A stretch of DNA of 64,000 nucleotides from Thermoplasmatales archaeon SW_10_69_26 (GCA_003009755.1 PXUB01000037.1:850-64849); one strand, 5' to 3'. Shown: positions 16,421-41,480, counted from the stretch's first letter. Notes: generated by a model from the letters alone, not told the origin. Numbers and translations are program-made.

Positions 16421-17916
16421 CGCGATCCCTCCTCGTTCCCGTCGAGGCGACGGGGGCGGGACTGCCGGTGGTAGGTGACGCCGATGCCGCCTTTGGGACC
16501 CATGGCGAGCGCGGCGGCCAGCGCGGCGGCCCGACGCCGGGAGCGCTCCTCGACGCGGGCTCCCTCCTCGGCGAGAGCGTCCACGATGCCTCGTTCATCG
16601 AGGTACTTCGTCGACAACTCGCCCTCCTGGAAGGCCGAGTCCTCGAGGATGCGCCGGTGCAGGGGCAGGTTCGTCGTGGCGCCGATCTGCGTCGTGTTGA
16701 CGGCCTCCCGCAACCGCTCGATCGCCTGCTTGCGCGTGGAGCCCCATCCGACGAGCTTGGCCAGCAACGAGTCGTACTCGGCGGGCACCTCGTAGCCGGT
16801 CTGCAGGCCGTGGTCGACGCGGATGTGAGGCCCCTGGGCCGGCTCGAAGTGGTCGATCGTGCCGAACCGGGGCGTGAACTCGTCGTAGGGGTCCTCCGCG
16901 TTGACGCGCAGCTCGATGGCGTGGCCCTCGAAGGTCACCTCGTCCTGCGTGAACGAGGGCTGTCGACCCTGGGCGACGCGCAGCTGCTCGCGGACGAGGT
17001 CGATGCCGGTCACGAGCTCGGTGACGGGGTGCTCGACCTGCAGGCGGGCGTTGACCTCGTTGAAGTAGAAATTGCCGTCCTCGTAGAGGAACTCCAGCGT
17101 GCCGGCGTTCACGTAGTCGGCGGCCTCGGCCAGGCGGCGAGCCATCGCGCCCAGCTCCTCGCGCGTGTCGGCGTCGAGCGCCGGGCTGGGGGCTTCCTCG
17201 ACGAGCTTCTGGTGGCGGCGCTGGATCGAGCACTCGCGCTCGCCGAGGTGCAGGATCTCGCCGTCGGGGCCGCCCAGGATCTGCACCTCGATGTGGCGGG
17301 GACGCTCGACGAACTTCTCGAGGAACAGCGCGCCGTCGCCGAAGGCGGCCTCGGCCTGCGAGCTCGCCTCGGTGAAGGCCTCCGCGAGCTGGTCGCCGTC
17401 GCCAGCCACGCGCATGCCCATCCCGCCGCCGCCGGCGCGAGCCTTGAGCATGACGGGGTAGCCGACGTCGTCGGCGATCTTGCGAGCGCGGGAGACGTCC
17501 TCGACGACCCCCTCGCTGCCGGGGCTGACGGGCACGCCCGTTTCGATCGCCAGCTCGCGGGCCTCGACCTTGTCGGCCATCGTCGCCATCGTGTCCGGTG
17601 TCGGGCCGACCCAGGTGAGGCCCTCGTCGATGACGCGCTGGGCGAAGACGTGGTTCTCGGCCAGGAACCCGTAGCCGGGGTGGATGGCGTCGGCGCCGGT
17701 GCGCTCGGCTGCCTCGATGACCGCGTCCTGGTCGAGGTAGGACGCGGCCGAGCGGGGCGGCCCGATGCGGACGGCCGCGTCGGCCTCGTCCACGAACACC
17801 GCGTCCTCGTCGGCGTCGGAGTACACCGCGACCGTGTCCAGCCCCATCGATTCGCAGGCGCGGAACACGCGCCGGGCCACCTCGCCCCGGTTCGCGACCA
17901 GGACCGTCTCCATCAT
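16417..17916 (-). CDS. accC: acetyl/propionyl-CoA carboxylase biotin carboxylase subunit
   Basis: From ATG at 17916 (MMETVLVANRGEVARR...), about 499 aa. ATP-grasp motifs are present. The 662-aa ORF in the track also includes an upstream in-frame transposase remnant (see findings). Confidence 0.85.
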   Translation of the reverse strand: MMETVLVANRGEVARRVFRACESMGLDTVAVYSDADEDAVFVDEADAAVRIGPPRSAASYLDQDAVIEAAERTGADAIHPGYGFLAENHVFAQRVIDEGLTWVGPTPDTMATMADKVEARELAIETGVPVSPGSEGVVEDVSRARKIADDVGYPVMLKARAGGGGMGMRVAGDGDQLAEAFTEASSQAEAAFGDGALFLEKFVERPRHIEVQILGGPDGEILHLGERECSIQRRHQKLVEEAPSPALDADTREELGAMARRLAEAADYVNAGTLEFLYEDGNFYFNEVNARLQVEHPVTELVTGIDLVREQLRVAQGRQPSFTQDEVTFEGHAIELRVNAEDPYDEFTPRFGTIDHFEPAQGPHIRVDHGLQTGYEVPAEYDSLLAKLVGWGSTRKQAIERLREAVNTTQIGATTNLPLHRRILEDSAFQEGELSTKYLDERGIVDALAEEGARVEERSRRRAAALAAALAMGPKGGIGVTYHRQSRPRRLDGNEEGSR

Positions 17917-17974
17917 ATCGCAGGGCCAGCGTCGTGGAAGAGAAAAGGGTTCGGGGCCCGCTCTCGGCCGCTGT

Positions 17975-18405
17975 CGAGGCAAGCAGGCGGAGGGATCCCG
18001 ATCGAACAGCCGGGCGAACGCCTCCACCCACGCCTCGACCTCTTCTCTCAAGGCGTTCCTCGGCGAGCGTCTGCGGAACGGGCCGATCCGTGCTTTGAGC
18101 AGGCCAACCCAGGTCTCCACCCTGTTCCGAACGCCGCCCGACGTGACTTGCCAGTCCAGCTCGAGCAGGTCCAACGGCCAGGGATACCACACGCCGCGGT
18201 CGACGTGGATCGCCGGCCGGTTGTCGCACCGGGCTGGCACGTGCTTGAGGAAGCCCAGGGCGTCCACGCTGCTCCGGCCTTGGCTGACCGCGACGTGGAC
18301 AAGTTGTTGCGTGTCGGGGCCGACGGCGGCCCACAGGAACAGCTCGGTCAGGTGGTCGCCGGCGTCCTTGTCGCCGTCCTCGGGCCACGCACCCGCTTGT
18401 TGCAA
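17975..18405 (-). pseudogene. IS630/Tc1-family transposase remnant (C-terminal ~145 aa only)
   Basis: ...CDNRPAIHVD...NRVETWVGLLKARI... is consistent with the C-terminal part of an IS630/Tc1-like DDE transposase (carrying the second catalytic Asp in DNxxxH). No N-terminal half. About 180 bp is 93% identical to 31171-31355. Confidence 0.55.
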
Positions 18406-18443
18406 CGACGCACCACCCAGGGGGAGGACGGCGGGCCGCTGGC

Positions 18444-20621
18444 CTACGGGGACAAGCCCTCCCCCGGGCCACCGGAGTCGTCGTCAGCGACGGTCGAGGT
18501 GCCGCCGGGCTTGGCCTGCAGCCAGGGGTCGAACCGGACGTTGCTCACGCCCTCGTCGCTGTCGTCCTCGGTGACCGCGTCGCCGCTGCCGTCGGCCAAC
18601 GCCGCGGTGACCGGGTCCTCGAGCGGGTTCGAGGCGTCCAGGCTGGAGGGACCGTCGCTGGCGCCCCAGTAGTTGTCGCGGGCGTCCAGGGTCCCGAACA
18701 CGACCCGGCGGGCGTCGATGCCGTACCCGCCGTTGCCGGCGATCACGTTGTCGTGGACCTCGACCTCGTCGACCTCGGCGTCCTCGGTGAACAGCAGGCC
18801 GTGGTCGAGGTTGTCGCGCATCGTGTTGTTCGCGATCTCGATCGAATCGGAGCTCTCCCCGGTGGTCGCGTCGACGGCGGTACCGTTCCCGTTGCCGGTG
18901 AGGCGGTTGTCCTCGACGACCAGCCCGGGCGTGTCGCCATCGGCGACGAGGCCGAACCGGTTGCCGGTGACCGTGTTGTCCGCCACCCGGTCCCCCGAGC
19001 TTCCCAACGAGTTGAGGGCCCCGTGGGTGCCGGTGACGGTGTTGGCCTCGATCGTCGACCCCTCCGCGACCACGGAGACGATCCCGTCCCGGCCGTCGAC
19101 CACCGTATTGTCCCGGATGGCCACGTTGGCGGAGCGGAAGACGACGATGCCGTCGTGGTTGCCGCCGTCGTATCGCTCGGGGTGCGTCGTCACGTCGTTG
19201 CCCTCGACGGTGCCCTCGACGCTACTTACCCGGTCGCCGTCCAACCGGATGCCCTCGTCCCCGTGGTCCACCCGACTCTGGGTGACGGACACGGTGTCGA
19301 CCCAAGAGGTGAACACGCCCAGCCGATCGGCATCGATGGTGGTGTCGGTCACCGAGACGCGGTCGTTGGACGACCCGGACGGCCCGAACGCGATCACGCC
19401 GTGGGTGACCTCCACGAGACGCGCGTCCGTGACCTCCATCGATTGTCTCGTCGACGGGGTGGCGAAGATCCCTCTTCTGCCATCCGTGACGGTCACATCG
19501 CTCACCCTGACCTGCCCGACCTCGTCGATCTGGAGCCCGTCGCGCACGGTCTCGATCGTCACGTTCTCCACGCTGAGCGCCGTCCCGCCCTGGGCGTACA
19601 CGCCTTGGCCGTTGTGGGACAGGTCGAGGTTCTGCACGGTGACGCCGATGCTGTTCACCAGGCCGACGTACCCGGGCGAGGGGTCCATCTGGTTCCCGTC
19701 GAGGGTGATCCCGCTGGCGCCGACGAGGTAGTGGATGGGTCGGCCGTCGACGGTGTTCGAGGTGTCCACGTGGTGGATGCCTCTCGCCCAGAAGTTGTAG
19801 GTGTTCCCGGCCAGCGCGTTGTCCCGCATGGTGACCCGGTCGTCGAAGCGGAGGTCGACGCCGACGCGGTTGTCGAGGACCGTGTTGGCCTCGAGGAGGT
19901 CGGTTCCCGGGAACGGGTCCTCGGCGATGCCGAAGAAGCCGACGTCGTTGTCGGCGAGAGTGTTGTCCACGATGCGGGCCTCGACGCCGCCGGGGTGGCT
20001 GTGGGCGAGGATGCCCGCGTCCTGGTGGCCTTGGATCTCAAGGCCCTGGATCGCGACCGCGCGGGCCTCGAGGGTGAACCCGTTGTCCCCGTTCAGGTCC
20101 TCGACGCCGTCGCCCCGGACGACGACGGGGGCCTCACCCACGCTGGGCACCAGGAGGGGGAGGTCGAGGCTGTGGGCGCTGGCGATCGTCACGCCCGGCG
20201 TGGTGACGGTGACGGTCTCGGTGTAGGTGCCCGGGCAGACGGCGATCGTGGTCCCGGGGTCGGCAAGCGTCTCGGCGACCTGGATCCCGGTCCAGTCGGC
20301 GGTGGGGCACTCCTCGCGGTCGTCGTCGACGAGCACGGGCTCGTCCACGAGGGGGACCGGCGAGCTTTCGGGGTTCGTGGACGTCGTCTCGGCGCCGTCG
20401 GGCTCGAGCACGTCGGCCGGCGGCCCCCCAGCGACCGCAGGGCGAACCGAGACGATATCCTCGTACCCGTCCGTGGGGAGGTCCAGGCCCGGCGGGGCCG
20501 AGTCCGCCTCGGAGCCGGGGGCCGACCCGGCCGCGGCGGGGACGGTCACCAAGACGAGTGCTGCGGCGACCGCGAGCAGCATCCCTCCCGCAACGCGCGC
20601 CGCGACTGGGTTACGGGGCAT
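18444..20621 (-). CDS. secreted right-handed parallel beta-helix repeat protein (NosD/pectate-lyase-like fold)
   Basis: 725 aa. N-terminal signal/[35 protein letters not shown]. Many ~22-aa repeats with N/D-x-V/I-x-x-N turns (e.g. IANNTMRDN, VEDNRLTGN). Start overlaps the stop of the upstream giant gene by 11 nt. Confidence 0.7.
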   Translation of the reverse strand: MPRNPVAARVAGGMLLAVAAALVLVTVPAAAGSAPGSEADSAPPGLDLPTDGYEDIVSVRPAVAGGPPADVLEPDGAETTSTNPESSPVPLVDEPVLVDDDREECPTADWTGIQVAETLADPGTTIAVCPGTYTETVTVTTPGVTIASAHSLDLPLLVPSVGEAPVVVRGDGVEDLNGDNGFTLEARAVAIQGLEIQGHQDAGILAHSHPGGVEARIVDNTLADNDVGFFGIAEDPFPGTDLLEANTVLDNRVGVDLRFDDRVTMRDNALAGNTYNFWARGIHHVDTSNTVDGRPIHYLVGASGITLDGNQMDPSPGYVGLVNSIGVTVQNLDLSHNGQGVYAQGGTALSVENVTIETVRDGLQIDEVGQVRVSDVTVTDGRRGIFATPSTRQSMEVTDARLVEVTHGVIAFGPSGSSNDRVSVTDTTIDADRLGVFTSWVDTVSVTQSRVDHGDEGIRLDGDRVSSVEGTVEGNDVTTHPERYDGGNHDGIVVFRSANVAIRDNTVVDGRDGIVSVVAEGSTIEANTVTGTHGALNSLGSSGDRVADNTVTGNRFGLVADGDTPGLVVEDNRLTGNGNGTAVDATTGESSDSIEIANNTMRDNLDHGLLFTEDAEVDEVEVHDNVIAGNGGYGIDARRVVFGTLDARDNYWGASDGPSSLDASNPLEDPVTAALADGSGDAVTEDDSDEGVSNVRFDPWLQAKPGGTSTVADDDSGGPGEGLSP

Positions 20622-23600
20622 GGACGGTCACCTCGATTTGGCCCCGGTCCACGGCGCCGATCTCGTCCTCGACCGTGAGCGTCACGTTGTAGCTGCCGGC
20701 CTGCTCGAAGGCGTGGACGGGGGCGCCCGCGGTGCTGGTGGCCCTGTCGTCGAAGTCCCAGGCGATGGCGGTGATCGGTTCGGGGCTCGAGGAGGCGTCC
20801 ACGAACTCGACGGGCTCGCCGACGGTCACGTTCGTGGCGTTGGCGGTGGGCGCAGCGACGAGGGCGTGGGGGCGCGGCGCGAACTGGACGCCGACCTCCG
20901 AGAGGGGCGTGGGGGTGGTGCGGTAGGTGACGCCGCTGGTGGTGTTCGACGACTGGGTTCCGATCGTGAACGTGGGGAGGTCGTAGGCCATCCAGGCGTC
21001 GGCCTCCTCGATCATGCACCTTGCCTTCCCGTCCTCGGTCAGGTGGAGCTGGACGGTGATGGAGCCCCCGTCTCCGGTCGGTACCTGTTGCCACTCGACG
21101 ACGAAGGCCCGGTTGGGCTCCTCGCCGACCGTCGCATAGCGCACGTCCGCCGGATCCGGCATCGATTCCCTGGGAGCGTAGGTTTGCGCGCAGTTCACCT
21201 CGTGGTCGGGCCCCCCGTCGTTTTCGCGGATGAAGGCACCGCTGAGCATCTCCTGGTCCGTGCAGTTCCCGATGCACGTGAGCCCGAAGTCCAGCACCCG
21301 CACTTCGGAGTGGTCGTCCCCGTACCAGGTGAAGTTGAACGGGAGCTGGAGGGGGCCTGACGCGTCCGTGCTATAGACGAAGAAGTCCGTGGAGAGGTCC
21401 TCGAACGTGAGCGAGGTCCCGTCGCTGGTGTCGGCCCAGTCGAAGGGGATCTCGGTGCACGTGTACCCGCCCACGTCGGGCCCGGTGTCCTGGCATCGGG
21501 GGGCGCGCGCCGTGGCGTCGGCCGGTTCGCCCTCGCCGGCGTCGTTGACGGCGGTGACGTGGTACTCTCTCTGTTCAAGGTAGTCGAGGCCTCGTTCCAT
21601 GTGGTGGCGCTGATCCTCGTCGAACGCGGTGACGAGGGTCTGGGTCCCGTCCGGGTTCACTTCGTAGAGGCGGTACGCGGTGACGGGGCCGGTGCCGGGG
21701 TCGGTGGGGGCGCCCCACTGGATCGTGACCTCTCGCGGCTGACCCGGCGGGGGCTCATCGGCCGGTGAATCGAACCGGTTGGCTCCCACCTTATCTTCGG
21801 AATCGGTGACCTCCGTGAGGTTCCACACCGGGCCCGGAGCCGTGGATGCATCGGTACTGGGGACGTGGGGGAGGTCGATCTGGAAGCCGCCGGCTCCCTT
21901 CGGGATCCGGGAGGTGTCCGTTCCCCGGCTGCCGTCGTAGTCCGCGTACGTGTCGGTTCCGCCTTGGTCGAGCAGCAGGCCCGCCCCGGGTTTCTCGGTG
22001 CTGGCGACCGGGTGGGGACCGATGAACTCGCAACCGGCCACCGGGTACAGGCACACCCGGTCGAAGACGAGGGTCGTCTTCCGGGGTGACCAGCTGGCTC
22101 CGTTGGCGCCCTGCGTGGTGGCCTGGTAGGTGTCGTCGCCGGCGTCGTCGCGCAGGAACCCGGTGCCCGACTGGGCCGCGCCGCCGTTGGTGGCGACGTT
22201 CTTGGCCTCGTAGGTATCGTCGCCGGCCCGGTCGTAGAGGAACCCGTTGCCTCCCCTGTAGCCGCCGCCGTTGCCCGCCTTGTCGGCGGTGTAGCGGGTT
22301 GCTCGTCCGTTCTGAAGGGGACGAAGGTTAGCGGACTGGACCCGGCGCTTCCCCCGTTCACCGCTATGTCGTCCGGCCTCTCGAAGCTACTCGCGGCGTG
22401 GTAACCGTCGTCGCCGGCCCCGTCGACTAGGAAACCCAAGGCGCGTCCGTAGCCGCCCCCGTTGGACCACGAGCTCCCCTCGTACGTGTCGTTGCCGGCC
22501 ACGTCGACGAGGCTTCCGATGGCTCTCCCGAACGCTCCGGCGCCGTTGCTGAGTCCACCCCCGACGTAGCGGTCGTTGCCGCCTCCATCGAAGAGGAACC
22601 CGGAGTCGCCCTGGGAGCCTCCGTTGGTCGTTTGCCCGGTGGGGGCGAAGAGGCAGTTCCGCCCGGTGATGTACGCGTCGTCCCCGCCGGCGTCCGCGAG
22701 GTAGCCCTGCCCGTAGATCGCGGCACCGTTCACCCCGTACTTGCAGGTTGTGTAGGTCTCGTCGGCGTCACCGCCGTCGTAGAGGAACCCGAACCCTCCG
22801 AAAAAGGCCCCCCCGTTGGTGGCGTAGATCGGGGCGTGGTAGGTGTCCTGGCCCACCCGGTCAACCAGGAACCCCGCGGGTGTGGTATCGGTGGATTCGA
22901 GGACGCCGCCGTTGGCGCCCTCTCCCCGCTGGGCCTCGTAGCGGTCGTCGCCGCCGGTGTCCACCAGGAGGCCGCTTCCCTCGAGGACTACGGCCCCGTT
23001 CACGCCTTGGAGGGGGGCCGTGTAGGTGTCGTCGGCTTCGCCGTCGTCGACGAGAGCGCCTACGCCTAAGGCGCCGCCGCCGTTCACGCCATAGAGGCCA
23101 CCGGTGTAGCGATCCTCGCCCTCGGTGTCGACCAGCAGGCCGATCCCGTGGACCCAGCGGGGTTGGACGCCCAGCTGGCCCATCACGTTTGCGCCGCCGT
23201 TGACGCCGCGCGATCCTCCGTCGTAGGCGTCGCCGCCGTCGTGGTCGACGAGCGTGCCCAGGCCGCTGGCGCCGCCGCCGTTGACGCCCTTGCCCCGGAC
23301 CTGGTATGTGTCCGATCCGTCGCCGTCGACGAGCAGGCCCGCGCCTAGCGCGTGGCCGCCGCCGTTGGTGCCGAAGTCGCCGGCCTGGTAAGCGTCCTGG
23401 CCGTCGGCGTCGACGAGCAGGCCGGTGCCGCCCAGCGAGGCGCCGCCGTTGACGCCCAGCGAGTTCAACAGCTTGAAGCAGCCCTGGTAGCCCTGGTAGT
23501 CGGGACGGTCGCCGGCGAGGGTGGCCTCGAGCGTGGCGTGGGTGTCGACGATCCCGTAGCCGAGGTCGGCGTTGCAGCCGTCCTCGGGGGGCGCGGGTTG

Positions 23601-26222
23601 GGCGTTGTCCCGGAGCAGTTGGCGGAGTTGCTTGTTCGTGAGGTCGTCGGCCTGGCTCCAGGCCAGCGCGGCGGTGGCGCTGACGTGGGGGGCGGCCATG
23701 CTGGTACCGTTGAGGACCCTGTACCCCGAGTCATCGCAGTAGTAAGGACCCTCACCGCGGTAAGGGCCAAGGAAGGGAGGCTCGTCTTCGACGCAGGCAG
23801 GGAGGGTGCTGAGCACGGCATCGCCAGGCGCGGCCAACTCGGCGTTGGGTCCATAACTGGAGTACCCGCACCGGGTCGCGTTCTCGTTGGTGCACGTGAC
23901 CGCGATCACCTCGTCGTAGGCGGCCGGGTACCTCACGCAGTCGTAGCACCCACTGTTGCCGGCGGCCGCGACCAGCAGGGCCCCCTCCTCCCAGACGTCG
24001 TGGACGGCCTGACGGATGGCGCTGTGGTCCAGGGTGGTGGTGATGCTCATGCTGATGACGTCCCCGCCGTTTTCGACACACCAGTGGAGCCCTTGGACCA
24101 CGTCGCTGACGAAGCCGCGACCGTCCTCGTTGAGGACCTTGGCGGCCATCAGGCCGGTGTGGGCGGTGCCGGCGACGCCTGTCTCGTTGTCGATGGTGGC
24201 GGTGGCGATGCCGGTGACGTGCGTCCCGTGGCCGTAGTCGTCCATCGGGTCCTCGTCGTCGTTGTGGAAGTCGTGGCCGGCCAGCAGGCGGTCTTCGGCG
24301 ATGTCCTCGTGCGTGTAGTCGACGCCCGAGTCCAGGATGCACACGGATTCGGAGGTGTCGCCGTTGGTGGTCTCCCAGGCGTCGGGTGCGTTGACCTGCT
24401 GGGGAGCATATTGGTCGTCGTAGAGCGGGTCGTTGGGGGTGGAGGCGGCGTGGACTTTCGCGTCGGGTTCCACGTAGCGGACGTTGGCGTCCTGTCGAGC
24501 CTCGGCCGGGAAGGTGACCGGATCCTCGGCTTCGACGACGAGGATCTCCTGCTCGGGCAGGGTGTCGAGGACGGTGGCGTTCTCGTAGGTGTCGCCCACC
24601 GACAATCCGGGGTTGTCTTGGTAGCCGACGAGGTAGCGGTCGGTCATGGCCTCGTTGCTGGCGGCCATGCCGGTGGGGTTCTGCCGGGCGGTCTCCTCGA
24701 TGCTCTCCGGGACGTGGCCGGCCGCGGTGTCGGGTTGGTAGGTGTCGTCCCCGTGGGCGTCGATCAACAGGCCGCTGCCGGCGTAGCCGCCGCCGGTGGC
24801 GCCGCAACCGGCGGTGCTGACGTAGGTGTCGTCGCCGCTCACGTCCACGAGGGCGGCGGCGGTGCCGGTCTCGTTGAGGTCGCACTCAGGGGCCTCTTGG
24901 AGGTTGGAGCCGCCGGCGTTGTTCTCGTAGGTGTCGTCGCCGCCGGCGTCGACGACGAGCGCGTAGTCCTCGGTGTACGTGTCGTCACTCTCGCCTAGGT
25001 CGATCGCCAGCGCCGGCTGGATGTCCACGGGCGCGGTGGTCGTCACCGGCGTGGTTTCGGCGAGGGCCTGGTGGAGGTCGAGGGCGGTGTCGAGGACATC
25101 CTGGCGGGCGCCGAACACCTCGGCCAGGTCTAGGTTGGCGTCCGCGTGGGCGTCCGAGAGGGACTGGCGAGGGGTTTCCTCGAGCTTGGCGGGGTCGACG
25201 GGGAGCCTTGGGATCGCTTGGTCGGTCTCCCAAGGGTCCTCGTCCCCCATGGTGAGGTCCCCGAACTTGTCGTCGTACTGTGCGGGCGTCATGGGAGCCA
25301 TGCCCAGCCCGGCGGGGCCGTCGGTGTCGGCCGCGCGGGGGTGCAGTTGGGCCAGGTGGTCGGTGTCGGCGTCGGCGTAGGCGTCCTGTGTGGCGGTCTC
25401 GAAGGCGAGGAAGGCGTCGAGGTAGTCGGTGAGGGCCTCCCGCAGCGTCGGGGGGAGGTCGTCGAGGTGATCGAGGCTCTGGCGTTGGTCGAGGGTCGGC
25501 GTGGCGTCGTGGCGGTGGACGAGCTCGCGGGCGGCCTGGCTGGGCGAGGCGTGGTCCGGCGGGGTCACGTCGACCGGCTCGATGCCGAGCGTGTCGGCCT
25601 GGTGGCGTGTGGACTGTTGGGCGGATCGGATCGACCGCTCGACCTCGCTTGTGGTCTCGTCGTCGGCGGTGGCCAGCAGGTCCTCGGCGACGTCGAGGTG
25701 GGCCTGCTGTTGGGCGAGATGGGAGGTGTCGGTGTCGATGCGGTCCCGGCGGTCCTGCACCGCCGTGTGGGCGGTCGCGAGGGCTTGGTCGCGGTTGGTG
25801 AGGCTGGAGTCGTCCTCGATCGCCGTGAGGGCCCGGGTGAGGTCGACGTTGGCCAGCTGGGCATCGAGGACCTCGCCCAGGCCCGGGTCCAGGGGCCCGT
25901 TGTGAGCGAGGGCTTGGCGTTGCTCGAACGCGGTGGCTGCCGCTGTGAGGGTCTTCTCGGTCGGGGCCGCGGTGGGATCCTCGACGGTAGCGTCGAGGCG
26001 GTCGGCCAGATCCATGCTGGCCTGCTGGGCGTCGGGCAGGTCCACGGGAACCTCCGCCGCATCCGATCTGGCTGTGGGGTCGATGGTTTCCGTCTCCGTG
26101 GGGGCCTCGTCGGTTCCGGGGGTGAAGACCCCGGCGCCGAGCCCGCTGATGGCGGGGGAGAGGGTGACGACGAGGGCCAGGGCGAGGACGGTGAGCGTGG
26201 AGTGGGTTGGGTTCGTGGTCAT
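20611..26222 (-). CDS. giant secreted subtilisin-like (S8) serine peptidase with VNGG/DxY tandem repeats and C-terminal FN3/PKD domains; apparent frameshift near 22290-22385
   Basis: ATG at 26222 with signal peptide ([27 protein letters not shown]). S8 catalytic triad context: D in ILDSGVD, H in HGTHVTG, S in GTSMAAPH. More than 20 copies of a ~27-aa G-x-NGG-x3-G-x-G-x-L-x-D-x2-G-x-D-x-Y repeat. Reading continues in a second frame (ORF 20611..22056), which carries more repeats plus PKD/FN3-like sequence (...[35 protein letters not shown]...). Confidence 0.65.
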
Positions 26223-27649
26223 GGGGACGTGCCTCCTGGGGTGGGTCGGTCGTGGTCGAGTTGGGCGCCGACGAGGCCCTTGGGGACGACCGTTTTGTCG
26301 GTGCCGGTGCCGCCCTCGAAGTCCTCGTAGGTGTCGGTGCCGTTCCCGTCGTACAACAGGCCCACACCGACGGGGACGTATTGATCAGTGACGAGAGAGT
26401 CGTAGTTGCCGTCGGTGGCGTGGCCGTTGACGGCGGTGACGGTGGCCTCGTAGCGGTCGTTGCCGTCGAGGTCGACGAGCAGGCCGGCGCCGGCCAGCCC
26501 GCCGCCGTTGGTTCCGTCCGATCCTGCGGTGTAGGTGTCGTGGCCGTCGGCGTCGAGCAGGGCGCCCGACCCGCCAAAGGCCACGCCGCCATTGGTCCCG
26601 GCTCCGTCGGCGAGGTAGGTGTCGTCTCCGTCGGCGTCGAGGAGGAACCCGTGGCCGCCGAAGTTGGCTCCCCCGTTCACGCCGCTGGCGGTGCCGACGT
26701 AGGTGTCGTTGCCCCCTTCGTCGAGGAGGGCCCCGACCCCGGAGTGCACGGCGCCCCCGTTCACGCCGCCCCTCCGTTTACCCGTGGGATCGTCGAAGAT
26801 GGCGGGATCGCCGTACTCGTCGTCGCCGTCGCCGAGGTCGACGAGCGCGGCGGGGTTGAGCCGGTAGACTCCAGGAATGGCCACCAGGTTGCTGGTTCCA
26901 CCGGCGTTGTTGTGGTAGGTGTCCTCGCCCCCGACGTCGATGGAGAGTCGGACGTCTTCCGTGTACGTGGCATCGCAGCCCTCCACGTCGAGCGCCAGCA
27001 CGCCGACGGAACCGACGATCGGATTGTCGGGCGTCTCGATGACGAGGGGCTCGCACGCGCTGGCGGTATCCGCCGGCATCCCGGGAGTGGTTTGGACGGC
27101 TCTGTGGAGGTCCTGGACCTCGTCGAGCAGACCGTTTCGGGCGGCGAAGACGCTCCCTGGGTCGCTGTCGGTGGAGGCCGCGCCGAGGACGAGGAACGCG
27201 TCGATCACGTCGGTGAGCTCGGTGCGGAAGGGCTCATCAAGGGTGTCCAGCTCGCGGACCTGGTCCAGGTCGTCGTCTGCAAGCGTTGCGTCGTGCTGGT
27301 CCGCGAGCGCGAGCACGGCGGCGCTCGGCGAATCATGCTCGATCGTCGGAAGGTCCACCGCGAGCCCATCGCCGAGCGTGGAGGCCTGGTGCTCGCCGAC
27401 GAGCTTGCCCAGCTCGATCGCCTCGGCGAAGGAGACGTCCTCGCCGGCCTCGTCCTGGAAGTGCTGGATCGCGGTCGGGAGCCCGTCGTAGGCCTCGACG
27501 GACGCGTCGGCGGCCGGGGCGCCCGAGCCCGACGACGATGGGCTCGGGGAGACGGCGGCGGTGGCCGGGACGGTGACGAGGGCGATCGCGGCGGCGAGCA
27601 CGGCAAGGCGGCGGGGCGACTCGATGAGCAAGCCTGCGGCCTCCGTCAC
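26219..27649 (-). CDS. secreted VNGG/DxY-repeat protein, paralogue of the N-terminal module of the giant protease; Tat-type signal
   Basis: 476 aa, GTG at 27649. SPRRLAVLAAAIALV looks like a twin-arginine signal. The helical region is homologous to the giant protein (LADQHDATLADDDLDQVRELDTLDEPFRTELTDVIDAFLV vs [40 protein letters not shown]). About 8 VNGG repeats. Stop overlaps the giant gene ATG (ATGA). Confidence 0.7.
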   Translation of the reverse strand: MTEAAGLLIESPRRLAVLAAAIALVTVPATAAVSPSPSSSGSGAPAADASVEAYDGLPTAIQHFQDEAGEDVSFAEAIELGKLVGEHQASTLGDGLAVDLPTIEHDSPSAAVLALADQHDATLADDDLDQVRELDTLDEPFRTELTDVIDAFLVLGAASTDSDPGSVFAARNGLLDEVQDLHRAVQTTPGMPADTASACEPLVIETPDNPIVGSVGVLALDVEGCDATYTEDVRLSIDVGGEDTYHNNAGGTSNLVAIPGVYRLNPAALVDLGDGDDEYGDPAIFDDPTGKRRGGVNGGAVHSGVGALLDEGGNDTYVGTASGVNGGANFGGHGFLLDADGDDTYLADGAGTNGGVAFGGSGALLDADGHDTYTAGSDGTNGGGLAGAGLLVDLDGNDRYEATVTAVNGHATDGNYDSLVTDQYVPVGVGLLYDGNGTDTYEDFEGGTGTDKTVVPKGLVGAQLDHDRPTPGGTSP

Positions 27650-27727
27650 AGGGAGCGGGCCAGTGCACGGTTAAGCGTTGCTTGACAAAATCGCATATTC
27701 CTCGCCCGCGAGGGGTCTCGCGACGCC
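27556..27727. repeat. direct repeat copy A (promoter + first ~30 codons of the 476-aa gene)
   Basis: 134 bp near-identical to 28835-28968 (2 mismatches read). Similarity continues, more diverged, for about 40 further bp. Confidence 0.7.
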
Positions 27728-27855: not shown

Positions 27856-28380
27856 TTACCTGTCGAGGTGCCGGCGAGCCAGAACCTCCAGCACCCCACC
27901 CTCCCAACCGCGGGCTTCGATGATCTCGTCCACGAGACGACGAGCCTGCGTCGTCGACAGCTCGCCCCGCTTCCTCGACTCGACGATCACGGCCACCGAG
28001 ATGCGAAGCCGGATGCCGTGCGCCATCGCCTCGTCCCTCAGCCCGGCGATCGCCCGCGCGTCGTCCGTGACAAGGACCTCGGCCTTCGACTCCCGGCAGG
28101 CCTGCAAGCAGGCAGCCTCCGCTGGCTGAACCCGGTTGGAGACGAGCGCTTCCATCGTCTCCGTAGCCTGGATGGAGAACACCTCGATCCCGCCCCCATC
28201 GATCCGAGACAGAACGCGCTCGGCCGCGGCGGCCTCCTCGTCGTCGAACCCGGCGAGATCCTCGAGCTCGGAAACCACCCTTCCCACGGTTGCGAGGTCG
28301 ACGAACGCGATCCGGTCGAGCAGATCCACCAGCTCGAGCGTGAGGAGCGCACTGGTGTCAGCAACGACACCCCGACTCAT
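27856..28380 (-). CDS. PIN-domain protein (VapC-like toxin candidate)
   Basis: 174 aa. N-terminal VVADTSALL resembles the PIN beta1 Asp motif, with later conserved acidic residues. ATG overlaps the stop of the upstream RHH gene (ATGA). Family assignment is by motif only. Confidence 0.5.
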   Translation of the reverse strand: MSRGVVADTSALLTLELVDLLDRIAFVDLATVGRVVSELEDLAGFDDEEAAAAERVLSRIDGGGIEVFSIQATETMEALVSNRVQPAEAACLQACRESKAEVLVTDDARAIAGLRDEAMAHGIRLRISVAVIVESRKRGELSTTQARRLVDEIIEARGWEGGVLEVLARRHLDR

Positions 28381-28661
28381 AACCCATCGTCGAAGGAGCG
28401 TTCGGCGACGTCCGTGTAATAGGCCACCGTCTTCGCTTCCTCGAACCCCAGGATCTGGACCAGGTCGTCGAACCCGATCTTCCCCTCGGCGAAGCGCTCG
28501 GATGCAAGCCCGCGGATCTCCGAGAGGCTTTGCTCCTTGTCGAGGTAGTCCTGAAGCGCCTCCCGAACGAGATCGGACTTGTTCGCGTGCTTCTCGGCCG
28601 CCAGTTCCTGGAGCCGCCGCGAGAGCTCCTCTTCCAAGCGCACCGTGAGGACGCTACCCAT
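28377..28661 (-). CDS. ribbon-helix-helix (CopG/RHH) antitoxin-like DNA-binding protein
   Basis: 94 aa. N-terminal RHH pattern LTVRLEEELSRRLQELAAEKHANKSDLVREALQDYL. An unusually AT-rich putative promoter lies immediately upstream (28662-28700). Confidence 0.65.
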   Translation of the reverse strand: MGSVLTVRLEEELSRRLQELAAEKHANKSDLVREALQDYLDKEQSLSEIRGLASERFAEGKIGFDDLVQILGFEEAKTVAYYTDVAERSFDDGL

Positions 28662-28793: not shown

Positions 28794-28928
28794 TCAGCTC
28801 CGGGGAGATCGCTCGTCCTCCGCGGGGAGGAGGTCGGCGGTGGCCGGGACGGTGACGAGGGCGATCGCGGCGGCGAGCACGGCAAGGCGGCGGGGCGACT
28901 CGATGAGCAAGCCTGCGGCCTCCGTCAC
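28794..28928 (-). pseudogene. duplicated 5' fragment (44 codons) of the 476-aa repeat-protein gene
   Basis: Encodes MTEAAGLLIESPRRLAVLAAAIALVTVPATA then diverges and stops. It lies inside direct-repeat copy B. Confidence 0.55.
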
Positions 28929-29018
28929 CGGGAGCGGGCCCGTGCACGGTTAAGCGTTGCTTGACAAAGTTGCTTGACAAAAGCACAACTATTCCACGCC
29001 CGTGAGGGGCCGACCCCC
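28835..29018. repeat. direct repeat copy B, with an internal 13-bp tandem duplication (gttgcttgacaaa x2 at 28956-28981)
   Basis: See copy A. The tandem 13-mer is absent from copy A. Confidence 0.7.
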
Positions 29019-29088: not shown

Positions 29089-30762
29089 ATGAGAAGCGCC
29101 GAGATCGTCGTTGGAGCCCTCCTCCTCGTCTCCGGGACGGCCATCCCGGGCCTCCCCATCCTCGAGGACGAGACCGCGACCAACTCCTCCGTCCGGGCCG
29201 AGGCCGTCTTCGAGACCGCCCAGTACGCCGGCCCCGCCGAGATCGAGGCGGACGGCGGCGCATTATGGAGCGAGGGGAGCCTCGAGGCGACGATCGTCGC
29301 CGAGTCGGTGACGGTGACCCGCTACGTCTGGGAGGGCGCCCACGTCGACACCTGGACCGGCCAGGAGGACGGCCTCTGGGCCTCGACGCACCATGGCAAG
29401 GGGACCACCGAGCGCTCGGCGACGACGTACGAGAACGCCACCATCCGGATCGACACGACGTCCGAGGCCGTGATGTCCGCCTGGCCCAACGCCACCCGCG
29501 GGCCCACGACGTTCGCCGCCGACCTCGCCGCCGACGAGACCCCGCCCATCGTCGCCTCCCCCAGCGGGACCATCCTCTGGCTGCTGTACTCGGGGTTCGA
29601 CCACCACGTCGAGGGACCCCTCTTCGCCCTCGGCCACAACGGCGGCCGTATCCACGACGCCTGGGTCGAGGACGCGGAGATCGAGCAGCTTGGCATCCAA
29701 GGCGCCCTCGACCTGAACGTGCTGGGCGGTAAGGTTACCGTGGAGACCGACGACGGGACGGACACCTATCGGACCGGCGTCGAGCAGACCGAGACCGAGA
29801 CGGACGTCCACGAGAACACGGTCAGGACCAAGCGCGTCCACGCCCTCGTCCACGTCACCGACGCCACCTTCCGGACGTCGATGGGCGAGGCCGAGAGCGT
29901 GTTCCTCGCCCAGGAGCCCACCTGGACGATCAACGGGAGCCTGCGGATGGACGCCCGGGAGGGCGAGGTCCGGACCGGTGCCGAGGACGCGACGCTCGAC
30001 AACGACACGCTCGCCGTCCTAGGCAACACGACCCTGGACCTGGCGGCCCAGGGCGAGACGCCGGACCCCTCGGACCCCCAGCCGTACCCGCGGGAGGAGC
30101 GCCCGACCCGGCCCATCGAGGCCGAGATGACCAGCGACGCCGACCAGGTGAGCGTCGACGGCCAGACGCACGACCTGCCGGAGCCGTTTCTCGTCATTGC
30201 CACGCAGAATCCCGTCGAACAGGAGGGCACCTTCCGGCCGCATCCACGAGCACATCCTGGAGGCCGGCATGGCCCACGTCCGCCGCGTCGCCCGCGACCT
30301 CGAGATCCCGGTCTCGTCGGCCATGTACCACTTGCGCGTGCTCCGCGAGGCTGGCCTGCTCGTCCGGGTGAAGCGCGAGGGGTACACCGTCTACTTCTCG
30401 TGCGACCGCTTCGACGTCGACGAGAAGAAGCGTCTGGCCCTGCTTGCCGGCGGCCCCCGCCGCGATATCGCCTCCACGCTCGCCGAGCGGGGCGCCATGA
30501 CCCAGGCGGCCCTCGCCGAGCTGCTCGAGGTGAGCCAGTCGACGGTCTCCAGGCAGATCGCCAAGCTCGAGGAGGCCGGTCTCGTCGAGGGGAACGGGAA
30601 CCACGGCATCCGGTACCGGCCCGCCGGCCTGCTTCGGGAGTGGCTCGGGCTGGAGAGCGAGGGCGCAGGTGGGGCGGGATCGGGCGGCGAGTGAGGGCCT
30701 GGCCGGGCCCACCCCCGTTCATCGTCACCGGCTGGTTCTGCCGGCCACGTGAACGTTCTTGA
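29089..30762 (+). CDS. secreted hypothetical protein whose 3' region is chimeric (in-frame MoxR-like fragment, then out-of-frame run into the ArsR gene); probably disrupted
   Basis: ATG at 29089. Signal peptide [21 protein letters not shown]. About 340 coherent acidic residues. From about 30130 the frame encodes [31 protein letters not shown], homologous to this genome's MoxR ([31 protein letters not shown]). After that the translation becomes Arg/Pro-rich frame noise. Confidence 0.4.
30130..30234 (+). pseudogene. MoxR AAA+ ATPase gene fragment (~35 codons)
   Basis: Homology to the central region of the intact MoxR at 40509-41480. No ATPase N-terminus or C-terminus is present. Confidence 0.5.
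30197..30694 (+). CDS. ArsR/SmtB-family winged-helix transcriptional regulator, apparently 5'-truncated
   Basis: ...[54 protein letters not shown]... matches the ArsR HTH. A second wHTH-like segment ([41 protein letters not shown]) follows. There is no ATG; only a TTG at 30197, directly after the MoxR fragment. Confidence 0.5.
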
Positions 30763-30843: not shown

Positions 30844-31150
30844 TTGGTCTGGCTCAAGGAACCCAAGTTCCACGACGAGCGGGACCGCCTGCTCCGCCAA
30901 CGCGTCCTCCACATCGACGCCCTCGAGGAACGCAAAGCCATCCTCGAGCCCCTCCTCGCGGGGTTGGCGTTAGAGGACGAGCCGGCGCACTGGTTGATGA
31001 GCATCCCCGGGTGCCGGTGGTACCTGGCGATGTACATCCTCAGCGAGGTCGGCACCATCAATCGGTTCGACAGCGTGGACGCGTTCAAGAAGTACAGCGC
31101 GTGCTGTCCCCGCAAGCAACCCACGGGCGGCCGGCAGGACCCGTACGGGG
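30844..31150 (+). pseudogene. IS110-family transposase C-terminal fragment
   Basis: LMSIPGCRWYLAMYILSEVGTINRFDSVDAFKKYSACCPRKQPTGGRQ matches the conserved IS110 C-terminal motif (L.SIPG.G...A......G...RF.S.....Y.G..P....SG). No DEDD N-terminal domain. Confidence 0.5.
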
Positions 31151-31170
31151 TGGTCCAGCATGGGCCGCTG

Positions 31171-31400
31171 TCAAGGCAAGCAGGCGGACGGATCCTGATT
31201 GAACAACCAGGCGAACGCCTGAGCCCACGCCTCGACCTCTTCTCTCAAGGCGTTCCTCGACGAGCGTCTGCGGAACGGGCCGATCCGTGCTTTGAGCAGG
31301 CCAACCCAGGTTTCCACCCTGTTCCGAACGCCGCCCGACGTGACTTGGCCGTTTCGCGGTCGAGGACGGGGCCGACCCGCCCCAGCGGGCCTTCTGCGAG
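31171..31400 (-). pseudogene. second IS630/Tc1-family transposase remnant (~60 C-terminal codons)
   Basis: ...VRNRVETWVGLLKARIGPFRRRSSRNALREEVEAWAQAFAWLFNQDPSACLP* is about 93% identical in DNA to 17973-18150. This copy keeps the TGA stop. Confidence 0.55.
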
Positions 31401-31745
31401 GAGGACGGCCACGCCGAGCACCAGGCCCCGACCCGAGCGGCGACCGCGTAGCCCTGATCGCTCCCGCGTCCCCCGCCTCCAGCGAGCGGCGTTTCACCGA
31501 CCGAGCCACACCGTTTCCCGATCGGCCCAATCGGCTCAAGTGTCCCCCAGCCGAGTCCCGGTCGAGGTGACCGAGGACATGAGGACACGACCGATCGAGG
31601 ACCACGCCGCTCTCGCCCGCCCTGGGTCAGTGGGGCGAGGCCCCGAGGAACCAGAGCAGGGCGGTCTTCGCGATGGAGACACCGTCTCGCATCCGGGTCC
31701 GCCGTCTGTTTTCGTCTTTCCCGACTTCCACGGTTGCGGTCATCC

Positions 31746-32657
31746 ATGATCACGTGCCAGGAGATCACGAAGAGCTACGGGGAACACGTCGTCCTCGCGT
31801 CCGTCAACCTCGATGTGCGGCGGGGCGAGACCTACGGTCTGCTCGGCCCCAACGGGGCGGGGAAGACCACGACGTTCAAGCTCGTCCTCGGCCTCGAGGA
31901 TCTCGACAGCGGTCGGGTCCTGGTGGGGAACAGGGACGTCGACAAGGACCGGGCGAGGTTCCTGGCCGACGTCGGCTACGTTCCCGAGGTCGTACCCGTC
32001 GAACCCCGCAAGACGGCCCGACAGAACCTGCGAGACGTCGGCCGATTGTACGATGTCGCCTCCCAGGAACTCGAGGACCGCATCCCGGAACTGCTGTCGT
32101 TCGTTGGCCTATCGGGGACAGGGGGCGATCGCGTCACCACGTTCTCGAAGGGGATGCGCCAGCGACTGGGGATCGCGCGGAGCCTGCTCCACCGTCCCGA
32201 CCTGTTGCTGTTGGACGAACCGTTCAGCGGGCTCGACCCCGAGGCCCAACGAGAGCTTAGACGTCTCGTCGAAACGCTGGCCTCGGAGGGACTGGCCTTG
32301 CTGATCGCGACCCATCGCCTGGCGGAGGCCTCCGAGATGTGTGACCGGGTCGGGATCCTCCACGAGGGACGCCTCCGTCAAGAGGTCCCGCTCGATGACC
32401 GGTCCCGGGAGAGCATCCACGCCAACTTCCTTGCCCCCGTCGGCGAGGAGGTCCTGGCGGCCGTGAACGATCTCGACGGCGTGGGCGCTGTCGAGCGGGG
32501 GAACGGGTGGGCTCGGATCCTCGCCGACGACGATTTGGGCGTCTCCCAGGTCCGAAGCATCCTCCAGGGGAAGGCCCGTCTCACCCGATACCGGAGCCCG
32601 AAACGGGAGCTCGAAGGTCTCTACGACCGCGTCACCAGCGAGGGGTCGAAGGCATGA
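31746..32657 (+). CDS. ABC transporter ATP-binding protein (ABC-2 type)
   Basis: ATG at 31746 (MITCQEITKSYGEHVV...). Walker A GPNGAGKTT. Signature LSGGQRK-like region FSKGMRQRLGIA. Walker B LLLLDEPFSGLD. Confidence 0.85.
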   Translation: MITCQEITKSYGEHVVLASVNLDVRRGETYGLLGPNGAGKTTTFKLVLGLEDLDSGRVLVGNRDVDKDRARFLADVGYVPEVVPVEPRKTARQNLRDVGRLYDVASQELEDRIPELLSFVGLSGTGGDRVTTFSKGMRQRLGIARSLLHRPDLLLLDEPFSGLDPEAQRELRRLVETLASEGLALLIATHRLAEASEMCDRVGILHEGRLRQEVPLDDRSRESIHANFLAPVGEEVLAAVNDLDGVGAVERGNGWARILADDDLGVSQVRSILQGKARLTRYRSPKRELEGLYDRVTSEGSKA

Positions 32658-38548: not shown

Positions 38549-39226
38549 TCACTCGCGGGCGAGCAACCACAGCGCCACACCCGCCACGAGGCCGGCCAGC
38601 GCGGGCGCCCAGACGAGGTCCAGGTTCCCGGCGAAGCGCTCGGTCAGCGGGGCCAGCAGGGCGAAGGCGAGCACGAGCGTGGCGCCGGCGAGCCCAGAGA
38701 CGACGAGCCACCGGATCGCGGCCGCTCGGGTCGCGCGATCGGCGAGCGGGCCACCCAATCCACGGCGTTCCAGCTCGGCGAGCACGCGTTCGCGGGCGCA
38801 GATCCCCATCTCGACGGTCGCCAGCGCGACGAGGCCGGCCGAGACGAGCCACACCTGGGCTGGGGGATCCAGCGTGGCGCCGGCCTGGCCGCCACCGAGA
38901 CGGGCCCAGGGGACGCGTCCGTAGGGGAGGGTGAGCACGGCGACGGTGGCGACGGTCCACAGCCCGAACCCGGTCCCGGTGCGGCCGCTGACGAGGAAGG
39001 TGCCCAACCCGACGAGCGTGGCGAAGCCACCGGTGAACGCGATCGCGAACCCGAGCGTGGCCTCGTCGGGGCCCAACAGTGGTGGGGCGAGCTCGCTGGC
39101 GCCGAGCAGGGCTTGCTCGACCCAGGCCACGTCGCCGGCGACCAGCTGCATCAGGAGGGCGAGGCCGAGCCCGTAGGCGAGCCCGATGGCGCCGCGGCGA
39201 GCTGGGCGGGCCAGCGTCTCAGCCAC
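38549..39226 (-). CDS. integral membrane protein of unknown function (operon member)
   Basis: 225 aa, ~6 TM helices. Start overlaps the DUF58 stop by 8 nt. Confidence 0.5.
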   Translation of the reverse strand: MAETLARPARRGAIGLAYGLGLALLMQLVAGDVAWVEQALLGASELAPPLLGPDEATLGFAIAFTGGFATLVGLGTFLVSGRTGTGFGLWTVATVAVLTLPYGRVPWARLGGGQAGATLDPPAQVWLVSAGLVALATVEMGICARERVLAELERRGLGGPLADRATRAAAIRWLVVSGLAGATLVLAFALLAPLTERFAGNLDLVWAPALAGLVAGVALWLLARE

Positions 39227-40505: not shown

Positions 40506-40508
40506 GGG

Positions 40509-41480
40509 TCAGGCCTCGCCTCGCGAGTACGCGGTGGGCGGCTCGACGTCGCCGATCGCGGCCTCGACGACGTCGGCGTCCTCGGTGCCCTCGATCACGT
40601 GTTCCATGTCGAGCACGATGCGGTGCGCCAGCGCGTCGACGGCCAGGTCCTTGACGTCGTCGGGCGTCACGTAATCGCGGCCGCGGGTCATCGCGAGCGC
40701 TCGACTCAACCGCAACAGGGCGAGGTCCCCGCGCGGGCTGGGGCCGACGTCGACCGCCTCGTGGGCGCGGGCGGTGCGCACGATGCGGGCGATATACTCG
40801 ATGATCGCTTCGTGGACGAAGATCTTGTCCTCGACGACGCGTTGCAGGCGTTGGAAGGTCTGCATCGAGATGACGGGCTCGACGTCGCCGCTGGGGTCGT
40901 TCTTGCTCCAGTCGATGCGGCGGCGCATGATCTCGGACTCGTCGTCGAGCGAGTCGGGGTAGCCCATCTGCAGGCGCACCAGAAAGCGGTCCATCTGGGC
41001 CTCCGGCAGGGGGTAGGTGCCCTCCTGTTCGATGGGGTTTTGCGTGGCGAGCACGAAGAAGGGCGAGGGGATCTCCATCGTGTCGCCCTCGATCGTGACC
41101 TGGCGCTCCTCCATCGACTCCAGCAGCGCGGATTGGGTCTTGGGCGGGGCGCGGTTGATCTCGTCGGCGAGGACGACGTTGGCGAAGATCGGGCCTTTCT
41201 CGAGCTGGAACTCGCCCGTCTTGGGGTTGTAGATGTTCGTGCCGACGATGTCGGCGGGTAGCAGGTCGGGCGTGAACTGGATGCGGTCGAACTCGCAGCC
41301 GACGGCTTGGGCGAACACCTTGACGAGCAGCGTCTTGCCGAGCCCGGGGTAGTCCTCGAACAGGACGTGCCCGTTCGCGAGCGCGGCGGCCAGCAGCTTC
41401 TCGACGGTGTCGGGGTGGCCGACGAACACGTCGTTCACGGTCTCGCGGATCTGGGTGCACTTGCGGGCGACGCGTTTCAC
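40509..41480 (-). CDS. MoxR-family AAA+ ATPase
   Basis: 323 aa from GTG at 41480. Walker A GHVLFEDYPGLGKT. Walker B VVLADEINRA. MoxR signature FFVLATQNPIEQEGTYPLPEAQMDRF. Confidence 0.9.
   Translation of the reverse strand: MKRVARKCTQIRETVNDVFVGHPDTVEKLLAAALANGHVLFEDYPGLGKTLLVKVFAQAVGCEFDRIQFTPDLLPADIVGTNIYNPKTGEFQLEKGPIFANVVLADEINRAPPKTQSALLESMEERQVTIEGDTMEIPSPFFVLATQNPIEQEGTYPLPEAQMDRFLVRLQMGYPDSLDDESEIMRRRIDWSKNDPSGDVEPVISMQTFQRLQRVVEDKIFVHEAIIEYIARIVRTARAHEAVDVGPSPRGDLALLRLSRALAMTRGRDYVTPDDVKDLAVDALAHRIVLDMEHVIEGTEDADVVEAAIGDVEPPTAYSRGEA

Follow-up and report, generated by a model that had tools for sequence, protein, structure and literature searches.

Two of the three co-oriented genes lying between positions 18,444 and 27,649 of a 64,000-nucleotide stretch of DNA from Thermoplasmatales archaeon SW_10_69_26 (the window) encode members of a large, coherent and unannotated protein family with a fixed architecture, and the tandem repeat from which both products are built, here called the VNGG repeat, is confidently predicted to form a three-stranded beta-solenoid. 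The source is a metagenome-assembled genome (MAG) of a halophilic member of the Thermoplasmatota from Atacama salt crusts; an earlier note, made from the sequence of this stretch, had looked towards haloarchaeal proteomes, and exact protein matches to SW_10_69_26 entries correct this to a Thermoplasmatota MAG. The three open reading frames (ORFs) described in that note, whose products we name P1, P2 and P3, are present on the minus strand with the boundaries it gave (Table 1), and their GC content at third codon positions (GC3, 0.85-0.94) indicates that they are coding. At NCBI, P1, P3 and the annotated part of P2 (frame A, see below) all bear the name "hypothetical protein"; P2 is numbered here as one protein across a break of frame discussed below. 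The gene overlaps were found exactly as described, P1 and P2 sharing 4 nt (ATGA, 26219-26222) and P2 and P3 sharing 11 nt (20611-20621). Both recur in an orthologous metagenomic locus, L003 (ends/starts 6235/6232 and 11844/11834), and since the two overlaps and the gene order are kept there, P1, P2 and P3 constitute one translationally coupled three-gene operon that is conserved in the orthologous locus.

The repeat unit and the family that carries it

The motif D..[GADESN].[DE].Y was found six times in P1, 17 times in P2 and not at all in P3, against means of 0.15, 0.57 and 0.08 in 2000 shuffles (maxima of 3 for P1 and 4 for P2), which shows that the tandem repeat of P1 and P2, with a spacing of mostly 27-28 residues, is genuine. 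The claim that all three proteins are built on it applied to P1 and P2 only, P3 having no VNGG repeat, and the figure of more than 30 copies was a slight overcount: the strands in two AlphaFold2 (AF2) models, together with the motif positions in the unmodelled part of P2, gave about 29-30 coils (23 by the strict motif), with about 8-9 in P1 and, in P2, about 4 before the protease domain and 16-17 after it. Over 150 family sequences the unit had the consensus xAGxxG[VT]NGGGxxxGxG[LF]L[LV]DxxG[DN]DxY and a modal period of 27, then 28 residues. When 163 units were chosen for a 28-residue spacing, D21, G24, D26 and Y28 were conserved at 97-100%, a figure to which the selection itself contributes, since the search motif is defined by these positions, and G10, G17 and L19 at 85-89%.

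A homology search with P1 returned 478 proteins at E <= 1e-3 among 8,000 candidates scored; among the matches listed, every homologue named at its source was a "hypothetical protein", and a precomputed Pfam domain was present in two of 120. The family alignment (A1; 45 sequences, with P1 as the founding sequence) presented a constant order of hydrophobic N-terminus, helical domain of about 130-150 residues, N-cap, coils and C-cap, in which the cap motifs D-x-x-Y-T-x-D...D-x-G-G-x-D-x-Y-x-N-N-A-G-G (N-cap) and G-T-G-x-D-x-T-V-V-P-K-G-x-x-G-A-Q-x-D (C-cap) were invariant or nearly so. A profile search of 1.84 billion cluster representatives (50% identity) yielded 3,914 matches at E <= 1e-3, 3,370 at 1e-10 and 2,033 at 1e-30, and most of the best stretches covered profile positions ~30-410, that is, the helical domain and the solenoid jointly.

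The distribution of the family was also approached with a degenerate DNA pattern for the N-cap stretch G-x-D-x-Y-x-NNAGG, run on GTDB species genomes. It matched more than 115 loci, of which 115 were fetched; 92 were confirmed by the family hidden Markov model (HMM), and the other 23, mostly from Bacillales, had no HMM support and were taken as chance matches. The archaeal loci confirmed in this way belonged to Thermoplasmatota, Halobacteriales and one Methanobacteriota MAG, and the bacterial ones to Actinomycetota (among them cultured Saccharothrix and Blastococcus), Planctomycetota, Nitrospirota, Thermodesulfovibrionales, Cloacimonadota, WOR-3, Verrucomicrobiota, Bacteroidia, Gemmatimonadota and others. 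Members from Saccharothrix/Actinosynnema are named "hypothetical protein" in RefSeq too (e.g. WP_157620733.1). Paralogues were frequent, with one (P0009) in the same MAG and three to four loci each in several MAGs of Thermoplasmatota and Halobacteriales. Within the operon, the paralogy of the N-terminal modules of P1 and P2 was borne out, as the family profile matched P2 162-499 at E 3e-75; the later P2 coils matched the profile separately, and BLASTP aligned P1 163-350 with P2 365-500 at 35% identity.

The repeat of P1 and P2 was unmatched in Pfam-A (2025) and NCBIfam release 20 (2026), even when isolated repeat segments were searched at E = 10. The solenoid parts of the bacterial and other archaeal members had no Pfam match, a profile search of PDB sequences gave noise on the helical part only, and nothing relevant was found in the literature on archaeal beta-solenoid or calcium-binding repeats and on the NNAGG motif. 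The solenoid repeat family that the earlier note took to be uncharacterised thus has no counterpart in these collections, and it reaches well beyond a single genome, with ~3,900 cluster representatives and 92 HMM-confirmed GTDB loci.

Predicted fold of the solenoid and domains of P2

The AF2 model of P1, computed with alignment A1, had a mean predicted local distance difference test score (pLDDT) of 85.7 and a predicted template modelling score (pTM) of 0.85. The structure prediction that had been proposed as a check therefore came out in favour of a beta-solenoid, and did so confidently; its ends are closed by caps that read DxGGxDxYxNNAGG (N-cap) and GTGTDKTVVPKGxxGAQxD (C-cap) in P1. According to DSSP, the strands of each coil comprise 4 residues at (T)Y-x-A, 2 residues just past NGG and 6 residues at x-G-x-L-L-D. 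A Foldseek search with this model gave no match in BFVD and none in the PDB at E <= 0.001, where the weaker matches did not include a beta-helix either. Beta-solenoids as such are well known; what is new is this repeat family.

The core of such a coil would be made up of Leu19, Tyr28 and position 2, where a small residue stands; the Asn of NGG would stack as a ladder, and the two invariant Asp residues of the D-x-x-G-x-D turn would stack along the solenoid. By analogy with the G-x-D-x-U turn of RTX proteins, an acidic ladder of this kind would have to be neutralised by bound cations (Ca2+ or Mg2+), and the outcome would be a rigid, salt-tolerant rod.

The sequence and a second AF2 model indicate that a complete pro-subtilisin cassette, with its catalytic motifs intact, is inserted between the coils of P2. 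The S8 peptidase domain announced for this protein was recovered by Pfam (Peptidase_S8, E 2e-46; 159 bits against a cut-off of 21.8 for PF00082) with all the catalytic motifs in place: Asp in ILDSG (629-633), His in HGTHV (665-669), the oxyanion Asn in AAGNSG (753-758) and Ser in GTSMA (839-843). The model, which covered P2 residues 380-1308 (pLDDT 75.4, pTM 0.57), presented in order coils, a small alpha/beta domain, the S8 fold and twelve regular coils. Its best PDB matches were unautoprocessed pro-subtilisins, namely pro-subtilisin E (3whi, E 4.8e-23) and pro-Tk-subtilisin (2e1p), and also 3afg; over P2 residues ~529-900 the target TM-score was 0.85-0.87. The alignments to the pro-subtilisins spanned 385-430 columns, exceeding the ~275 residues of the mature domain, suggesting that a propeptide lies beside the catalytic domain. 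P2 differs from these enzymes in that its cassette is embedded in a multidomain protein of 1870 aa, between solenoid coils. None of the specific subtilase models of NCBIfam was matched above its curated cut-off, and assignment of the protease as a mycosin of type VII secretion (TIGR03921) was rejected, with 165.9 bits against an equivalog cut-off of 278.75.

Subtilase autotransporters and the SPATEs bear their protease domain on a long beta-helical stalk, and the passengers of these proteins offer a functional analogy to P2, in which a serine protease would likewise sit on a long beta-solenoid, plausibly acting as a rigid spacer and as a scaffold for folding. P2 departs from them in its archaeal host, in the lack of a beta-barrel translocator and in its unrelated solenoid; moreover, its protease, which retains a propeptide of its own, is flanked by solenoid coils both before and after.

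Of the FN3- and PKD-like domains that had been placed at the end of P2, the PKD domain stood (E 4e-15; 56 bits against a cut-off of 27 for PF18911 and 36.4 against 23.5 for PF00801), whereas the FN3-like one stayed below the Pfam cut-off (18.8 against 25 bits). Between the two there is a Cys-containing domain of ~200 residues (P2 ~1575-1785; ~20870-21500, minus strand), which is kept in the P2 ortholog P0121 and had no Pfam or NCBIfam match at E <= 0.1.

Export, proposed function and competing explanations

Judging from their sequences, P1, P2 and P3 are secreted proteins, probably of Sec type; all three are very acidic, with Asp+Glu at ~16-17%. A signal-like hydrophobic N-terminus was present in 169 of 204 family members and an RR motif in 13. 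The twin-arginine translocation (Tat) signal that had been read in P1 amounts to a single motif, SPRRLAVL, which is absent from the close homologues P0002, P0003 and P0012, and it is not a trait of the family. A C-terminal membrane segment was found in few of the 204 members and in none of P1, P2 and P3, whose C-termini (two of them IEVTVHAP and GGPGEGLSP) also lack a PGF-CTERM, as had been noticed before.

P3 combines a signal peptide with a right-handed beta-helix of CASH/NosD type (Pfam Beta_helix, E 2.3e-34; NosD, E 1.6e-28). It is best regarded, from these matches, as a generic CASH-type beta-helix unrelated to the VNGG solenoid. Identification as NosD itself (TIGR04247, NosD_copper_fam) was discarded, the score being 74.4 bits against a cut-off of 300 and the neighbours not forming a nos set, as was distant kinship with the solenoid, for which hhalign gave a probability of 0.5% between A1 and an alignment of P3-type proteins. 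CASH/NosD beta-helices (PF13229/PF05048) resemble the VNGG solenoid, to which they are often fused or adjacent, in being extracellular, in having three strands per coil and possibly in an Asn ladder. They differ in that no similarity was detected by Pfam HMMs or by that profile comparison, nor any beta-helix by Foldseek; the coils of the VNGG solenoid are also longer and very regular, their turns are rich in Gly, and every coil contains two invariant Asp. The VNGG module was directly fused to Beta_helix/NosD in P0084, P0130, P0134, P0137 and P0143, and these fusions suggest a functional link between proteins of the P1/P2 type and the class of beta-helix to which P3 belongs. The other fusion partners were all of extracellular type (S8, PKD, PQQ and LVIVD propellers, PDZ, Calx-beta, FG-GAP and CarboxypepD_reg). 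A phmmer search with P3 and the S8 domain against the ORFs of the 115 loci matched the sister loci L001 and L003 only, a method too insensitive to reveal co-occurrence of beta-helices.

The whole explanation that we propose, by analogy with the systems compared above, stands at about even odds: the solenoid, stabilised by cations, would be the extracellular stalk or scaffold of an apparatus that is secreted and has a degradative or adhesive role. It would hold the protease and binding domains off the cell; a P1-like N-terminal fragment would be set free when the propeptide is autoprocessed; and P1, as a free copy of the module, and P3, as a beta-helix, would act together with P2, in secreted or surface-associated form, to bind or degrade extracellular polymers. 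Cation binding, the stalk role, propeptide cleavage and cooperation of the three proteins are steps that we infer. The idea of a dedicated apparatus, already put forward in the earlier note, held in so far as the operon is present both in the window and in L003, and failed in two other neighbourhoods, those of P0018 and P0112, where unrelated genes surround the family member and no P1-P2-P3 operon is found. Because the operon was not seen in these neighbourhoods outside the lineage, a joint function of the three proteins would not be a property of the family.

These neighbourhoods count against the stalk or scaffold proposal, and so do several other points. The cation step is an analogy with RTX proteins, and AF2 places no ions. 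The conserved helical domain has no role assigned to it in the proposal. The placement of the S8 domain relative to the two solenoid parts is uncertain (P2 model pTM 0.57). A cell-anchoring element was not found in these proteins other than the N-terminal hydrophobic segment. Finally, two of three Saccharothrix loci adjoin secreted glycan-degrading enzymes, L112 having a pectate lyase, a GH10 enzyme and a GDSL esterase as neighbours and L075 having a GH27 enzyme with a ricin lectin domain and a polyhydroxybutyrate (PHB)-depolymerase-type esterase with a ricin lectin domain, which hints at a glycan role of the solenoid itself instead of a passive stalk. The homologues at these two loci (L075 540-6236, L112 2219-7999) are ~523-529 aa long and carry a lipobox-like LSGC.

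The last point leads to the main rival explanation, which we consider rather unlikely: the solenoid itself could be a glycan-binding or glycan-cleaving module, like proteins with a pectate-lyase fold or CASH domains, and the operon would then serve polysaccharide processing rather than present a stalk-borne protease. The beta-helix is the fold classically associated with polysaccharide lyases and hydrolases, and the repeated fusion or adjacency to CASH/NosD beta-helices (the five fusions listed above, P3, and a 1274-aa protein of L003) is consistent with such a role, as are the two Saccharothrix genomes. The residues invariant in A1, however, are essentially repeat and cap positions, with no separate catalytic cluster; neither the P3 beta-helix nor any Pfam family of carbohydrate-active enzyme (CAZyme) type showed homology; and the neighbours were unrelated at the third Saccharothrix locus (L094) as well as around P0018 and P0112. 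Less probable still is that the three proteins are structural envelope components, S-layer- or sheath-like, of a wall-less archaeon, with the protease serving their maturation. They are secreted, acidic and repeat-built, and several paralogues occur per genome, as this would require, but they have neither a PGF-CTERM nor a C-terminal membrane segment, the family is also present in diderm and monoderm bacteria with ordinary walls, and the capped ends of the solenoid would speak against end-to-end polymerisation.

The earlier note had likened the repeat to RTX calcium-binding beta-rolls, and it could be supposed that it is a divergent RTX (hemolysin-type) repeat and that P1 and P2 are RTX-like secreted proteins; we regard this as very improbable. 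The RTX nonapeptide consensus contains G-x-D-x-U-x, and RTX proteins bear a C-terminal type I secretion signal. The likeness held for that half-motif, since the last six coil positions, G-[DN]-D-x-Y-x, fit it and give a G-x-D-x-[YF] turn; both are also secreted, Gly/Asp-rich tandem repeats with a G-x-D-x-[hydrophobic/aromatic] turn, and stacked Asp turns with a cation step may be common to them. It did not extend further: the period is 27-28 and not 9 or 18 residues, PF00353 was silent at E = 10 on isolated repeat segments, and AF2 predicts three strands per coil where the RTX roll, with its 9-residue unit, is two-stranded. The NGG(G) Asn motif, the conserved caps and the obligatory helical domain are absent from RTX domains, and the signal-like segments are N-terminal. 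Although it belongs neither to the RTX repeats nor to the known beta-helix families, the VNGG family plausibly functions in a similar manner. A bolder reading would have the VNGG/D-x-x-G-x-D-x-Y proteins form a new structural class with no solved relative, composed of a three-sided solenoid with 27-28-residue coils and a cation ladder, an obligate helical domain and caps; this class, spread over archaea and numerous bacterial phyla, would have one extracellular function (e.g. cation-dependent polymer or mineral binding on a flat face), to which proteases and CASH domains were recruited repeatedly. We advance it tentatively, as a possibility with the balance against it.

The frame break in P2, the surroundings of the operon and implications

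P2, which had been described as a single ORF of ~1870 aa, is split over two frames in this sequence. From 26222, frame A encodes a sensible protein to ~22299 and is then out of frame to a stop at 21657, whereas frame B is open from ~22385 and encodes the remaining P2 to the stop at 20611. The ortholog P0121 is uninterrupted (1870 aa, 76% identity over the full length), and the 34 nt missing at the junction comprise 1 nt and the eleven codons of AGLLFDADGDD, which make up the core of one coil. Programmed -1 frameshifting at 22296/22297 was excluded, as 34 nt of coding sequence are simply absent with respect to the ortholog. An independent megahit assembly of ENA sample ERZ27230162 contains a contig, L001, that matches window 17294-22296 at 100% identity and ends exactly at the junction base 22296. 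The scaffold deviates at a second site, 30166-30243, within a regulator gene (29089-30762, plus strand), where 78 nt are unlike both contig L002 and the ortholog L003, which agree with each other against the window; this patch, whose region has a partial AAA_3 (MoxR-like) match, splits the regulator into two frames and leaves its helix-turn-helix (HTH) domains (30197-30694) out of frame with the N-terminal part, and probably reflects a chimera formed locally when the deposited scaffold was assembled. With two deviating sites in the scaffold, at each of which the independent assembly either stops or reads differently, the frame break in P2 is very probably an assembly artefact and P2 not a dead gene.

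The alternative, that P2 is a genuine pseudogene in which a real 34-nt deletion between CCGC microhomologies cuts the protein after ~1308 residues, has in its favour the frameshift standing in the deposited NCBI scaffold (BRD56_09600, annotated as 1521 aa) and the short direct microhomology that bounds the deletion. It is nevertheless improbable, since an assembly should run across a real deletion without a break and L001 stops exactly at 22296; besides, the same scaffold has the second chimeric patch, the frame downstream of the junction retains a high GC3 and intact domains, and the underlying reads, from which IDBA_UD built the assembly, were 100 nt long (PMC5532433). For users of the public MAG annotation it matters that the giant gene probably looks truncated there because of an assembly error.

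Table 1. Coordinates of the genes, domains and other features of the operon region in the window.
Feature	Position	Strand	Description
P1	26219..27649	-	ORF, 476 aa; NCBI BRD56_09605 = PSG96599.1
P1 architecture	26219..27649	-	Signal peptide, helical domain, capped beta-solenoid of ~8-9 coils (predicted, AF2)
P1 helical N-domain, residues 57-187	27089..27481	-	DSSP of the AF2 model; conserved along with the solenoid
P1 beta-solenoid, residues 202-465, caps included	26255..27046	-	Predicted (AF2); three strands per 27-28-residue coil
P2, nominal	20611..26222	-	Two frames that need a join at 22296/22297
P2 frame A ORF	21657..26222	-	1521 aa, annotated as BRD56_09600 (NCBI)
P2 frame A part, residues 1-1308	22297..26222	-	Signal peptide, long helical region, N-cap and ~4 coils, pro-subtilisin cassette, ~12 coils
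P2 N-cap and first coils, residues ~405-500	24723..25010	-	Upstream of the protease; motifs at 425, 460, 488; model strands; aligns to P1
P2 subtilisin propeptide-like domain, residues ~529-592	24447..24638	-	Alternating strand/helix in the model
P2 Peptidase_S8 domain, residues 625-890	23553..24350	-	PF00082, E 2.1e-46; Foldseek
P2 C-terminal solenoid, residues ~920-1450	21871..23465	-	~16-17 coils and C-cap; motifs, model strands, profile; crosses the junction
P2 frame junction	22296..22297	-	34 nt fewer than the intact ortholog (DNA alignment with L003)
P2 frame B part, residues 1309-1869	20611..22296	-	Last coils, C-cap, FN3-like domain, unassigned beta domain, PKD
FN3-like domain of P2	21517..21741	-	Pfam fn3, E 0.0019, 18.8 bits, below the cut-off of 25
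PKD domain, P2 residues 1789-1866	20623..20856	-	PKD_4, E 4.3e-15; PKD, E 5.4e-9
P3	18444..20621	-	725 aa; NCBI BRD56_09590, called 712 aa there
Toxin-antitoxin genes	27856-28380; 28377-28661	-	RHH and DUF3368

Downstream of P3 lie housekeeping genes (biotin carboxylase, biotin carboxyl carrier protein, AMP-binding enzyme, DnaK and DnaJ), and upstream of P1 a ribbon-helix-helix (RHH)/DUF3368 toxin-antitoxin (TA) pair followed by the divergent HTH regulator. The order in L003 is regulator, P1', P2', P3', the same TA pair, a second P1 paralogue and the 1274-aa Beta_helix/NosD protein. A 146-nt direct repeat (96.6%; 27545-27689 and 28823-28968) covers the region upstream of P1 and its first 34 codons, which encode the signal peptide; the upstream copy, truncated to a stub of 47 codons, precedes the TA pair, the DUF3368 member of which is PIN-like. 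The TA cassette of L003, between P3' and the second P1 paralogue, again comes after a 71-nt fragment of the signal-peptide region. These sequences suggest that the cassette uses the 5' ends of P1-type genes to move or recombine.

A second direct repeat of 185 nt (94%; 17966-18150 and 31163-31347) brackets a 13-kb block of P3, P2, P1, the TA pair and the regulator, and its copy at 31163 lies within an ORF (30844-31749, plus strand) that bears an IS110-type Transposase_20 fragment. The block has other flanking genes in L003 than in the window and may therefore belong to an island that moves or rearranges. No tRNA gene was found in the window, so that integration sites of tRNA type were rejected for the flanking repeats; reading 17927-18405 (minus strand) as the tail of an IS6-like transposase was unsupported by Pfam. 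Elsewhere in the window, the region 39219-45668 (minus strand), its most GC-rich part (0.73-0.75), encodes a 1034-aa protein with Big_1, CarboxypepD_reg and macroglobulin-like domains and a C-terminal DUF4129; with a DUF58 protein nearby and a likely MoxR-type ATPase at ~41 kb (34-nt similarity only), it resembles a MoxR/DUF58-type cluster.

An entire pro-subtilisin inside a solenoid is an unusual domain arrangement. If the cation-stabilised three-stranded solenoid is confirmed, it would be a new regular architecture, useful for protein design and for the study of folding in saturated brine. The family, with ~3,900 clusters across salt-crust archaea, soil actinomycetes and several candidate phyla, can be defined by its helical domain, NNAGG cap, 27-28-residue coils and PKG..GAQ.D cap, and this definition would permit a Pfam or NCBIfam model and systematic annotation of its members.

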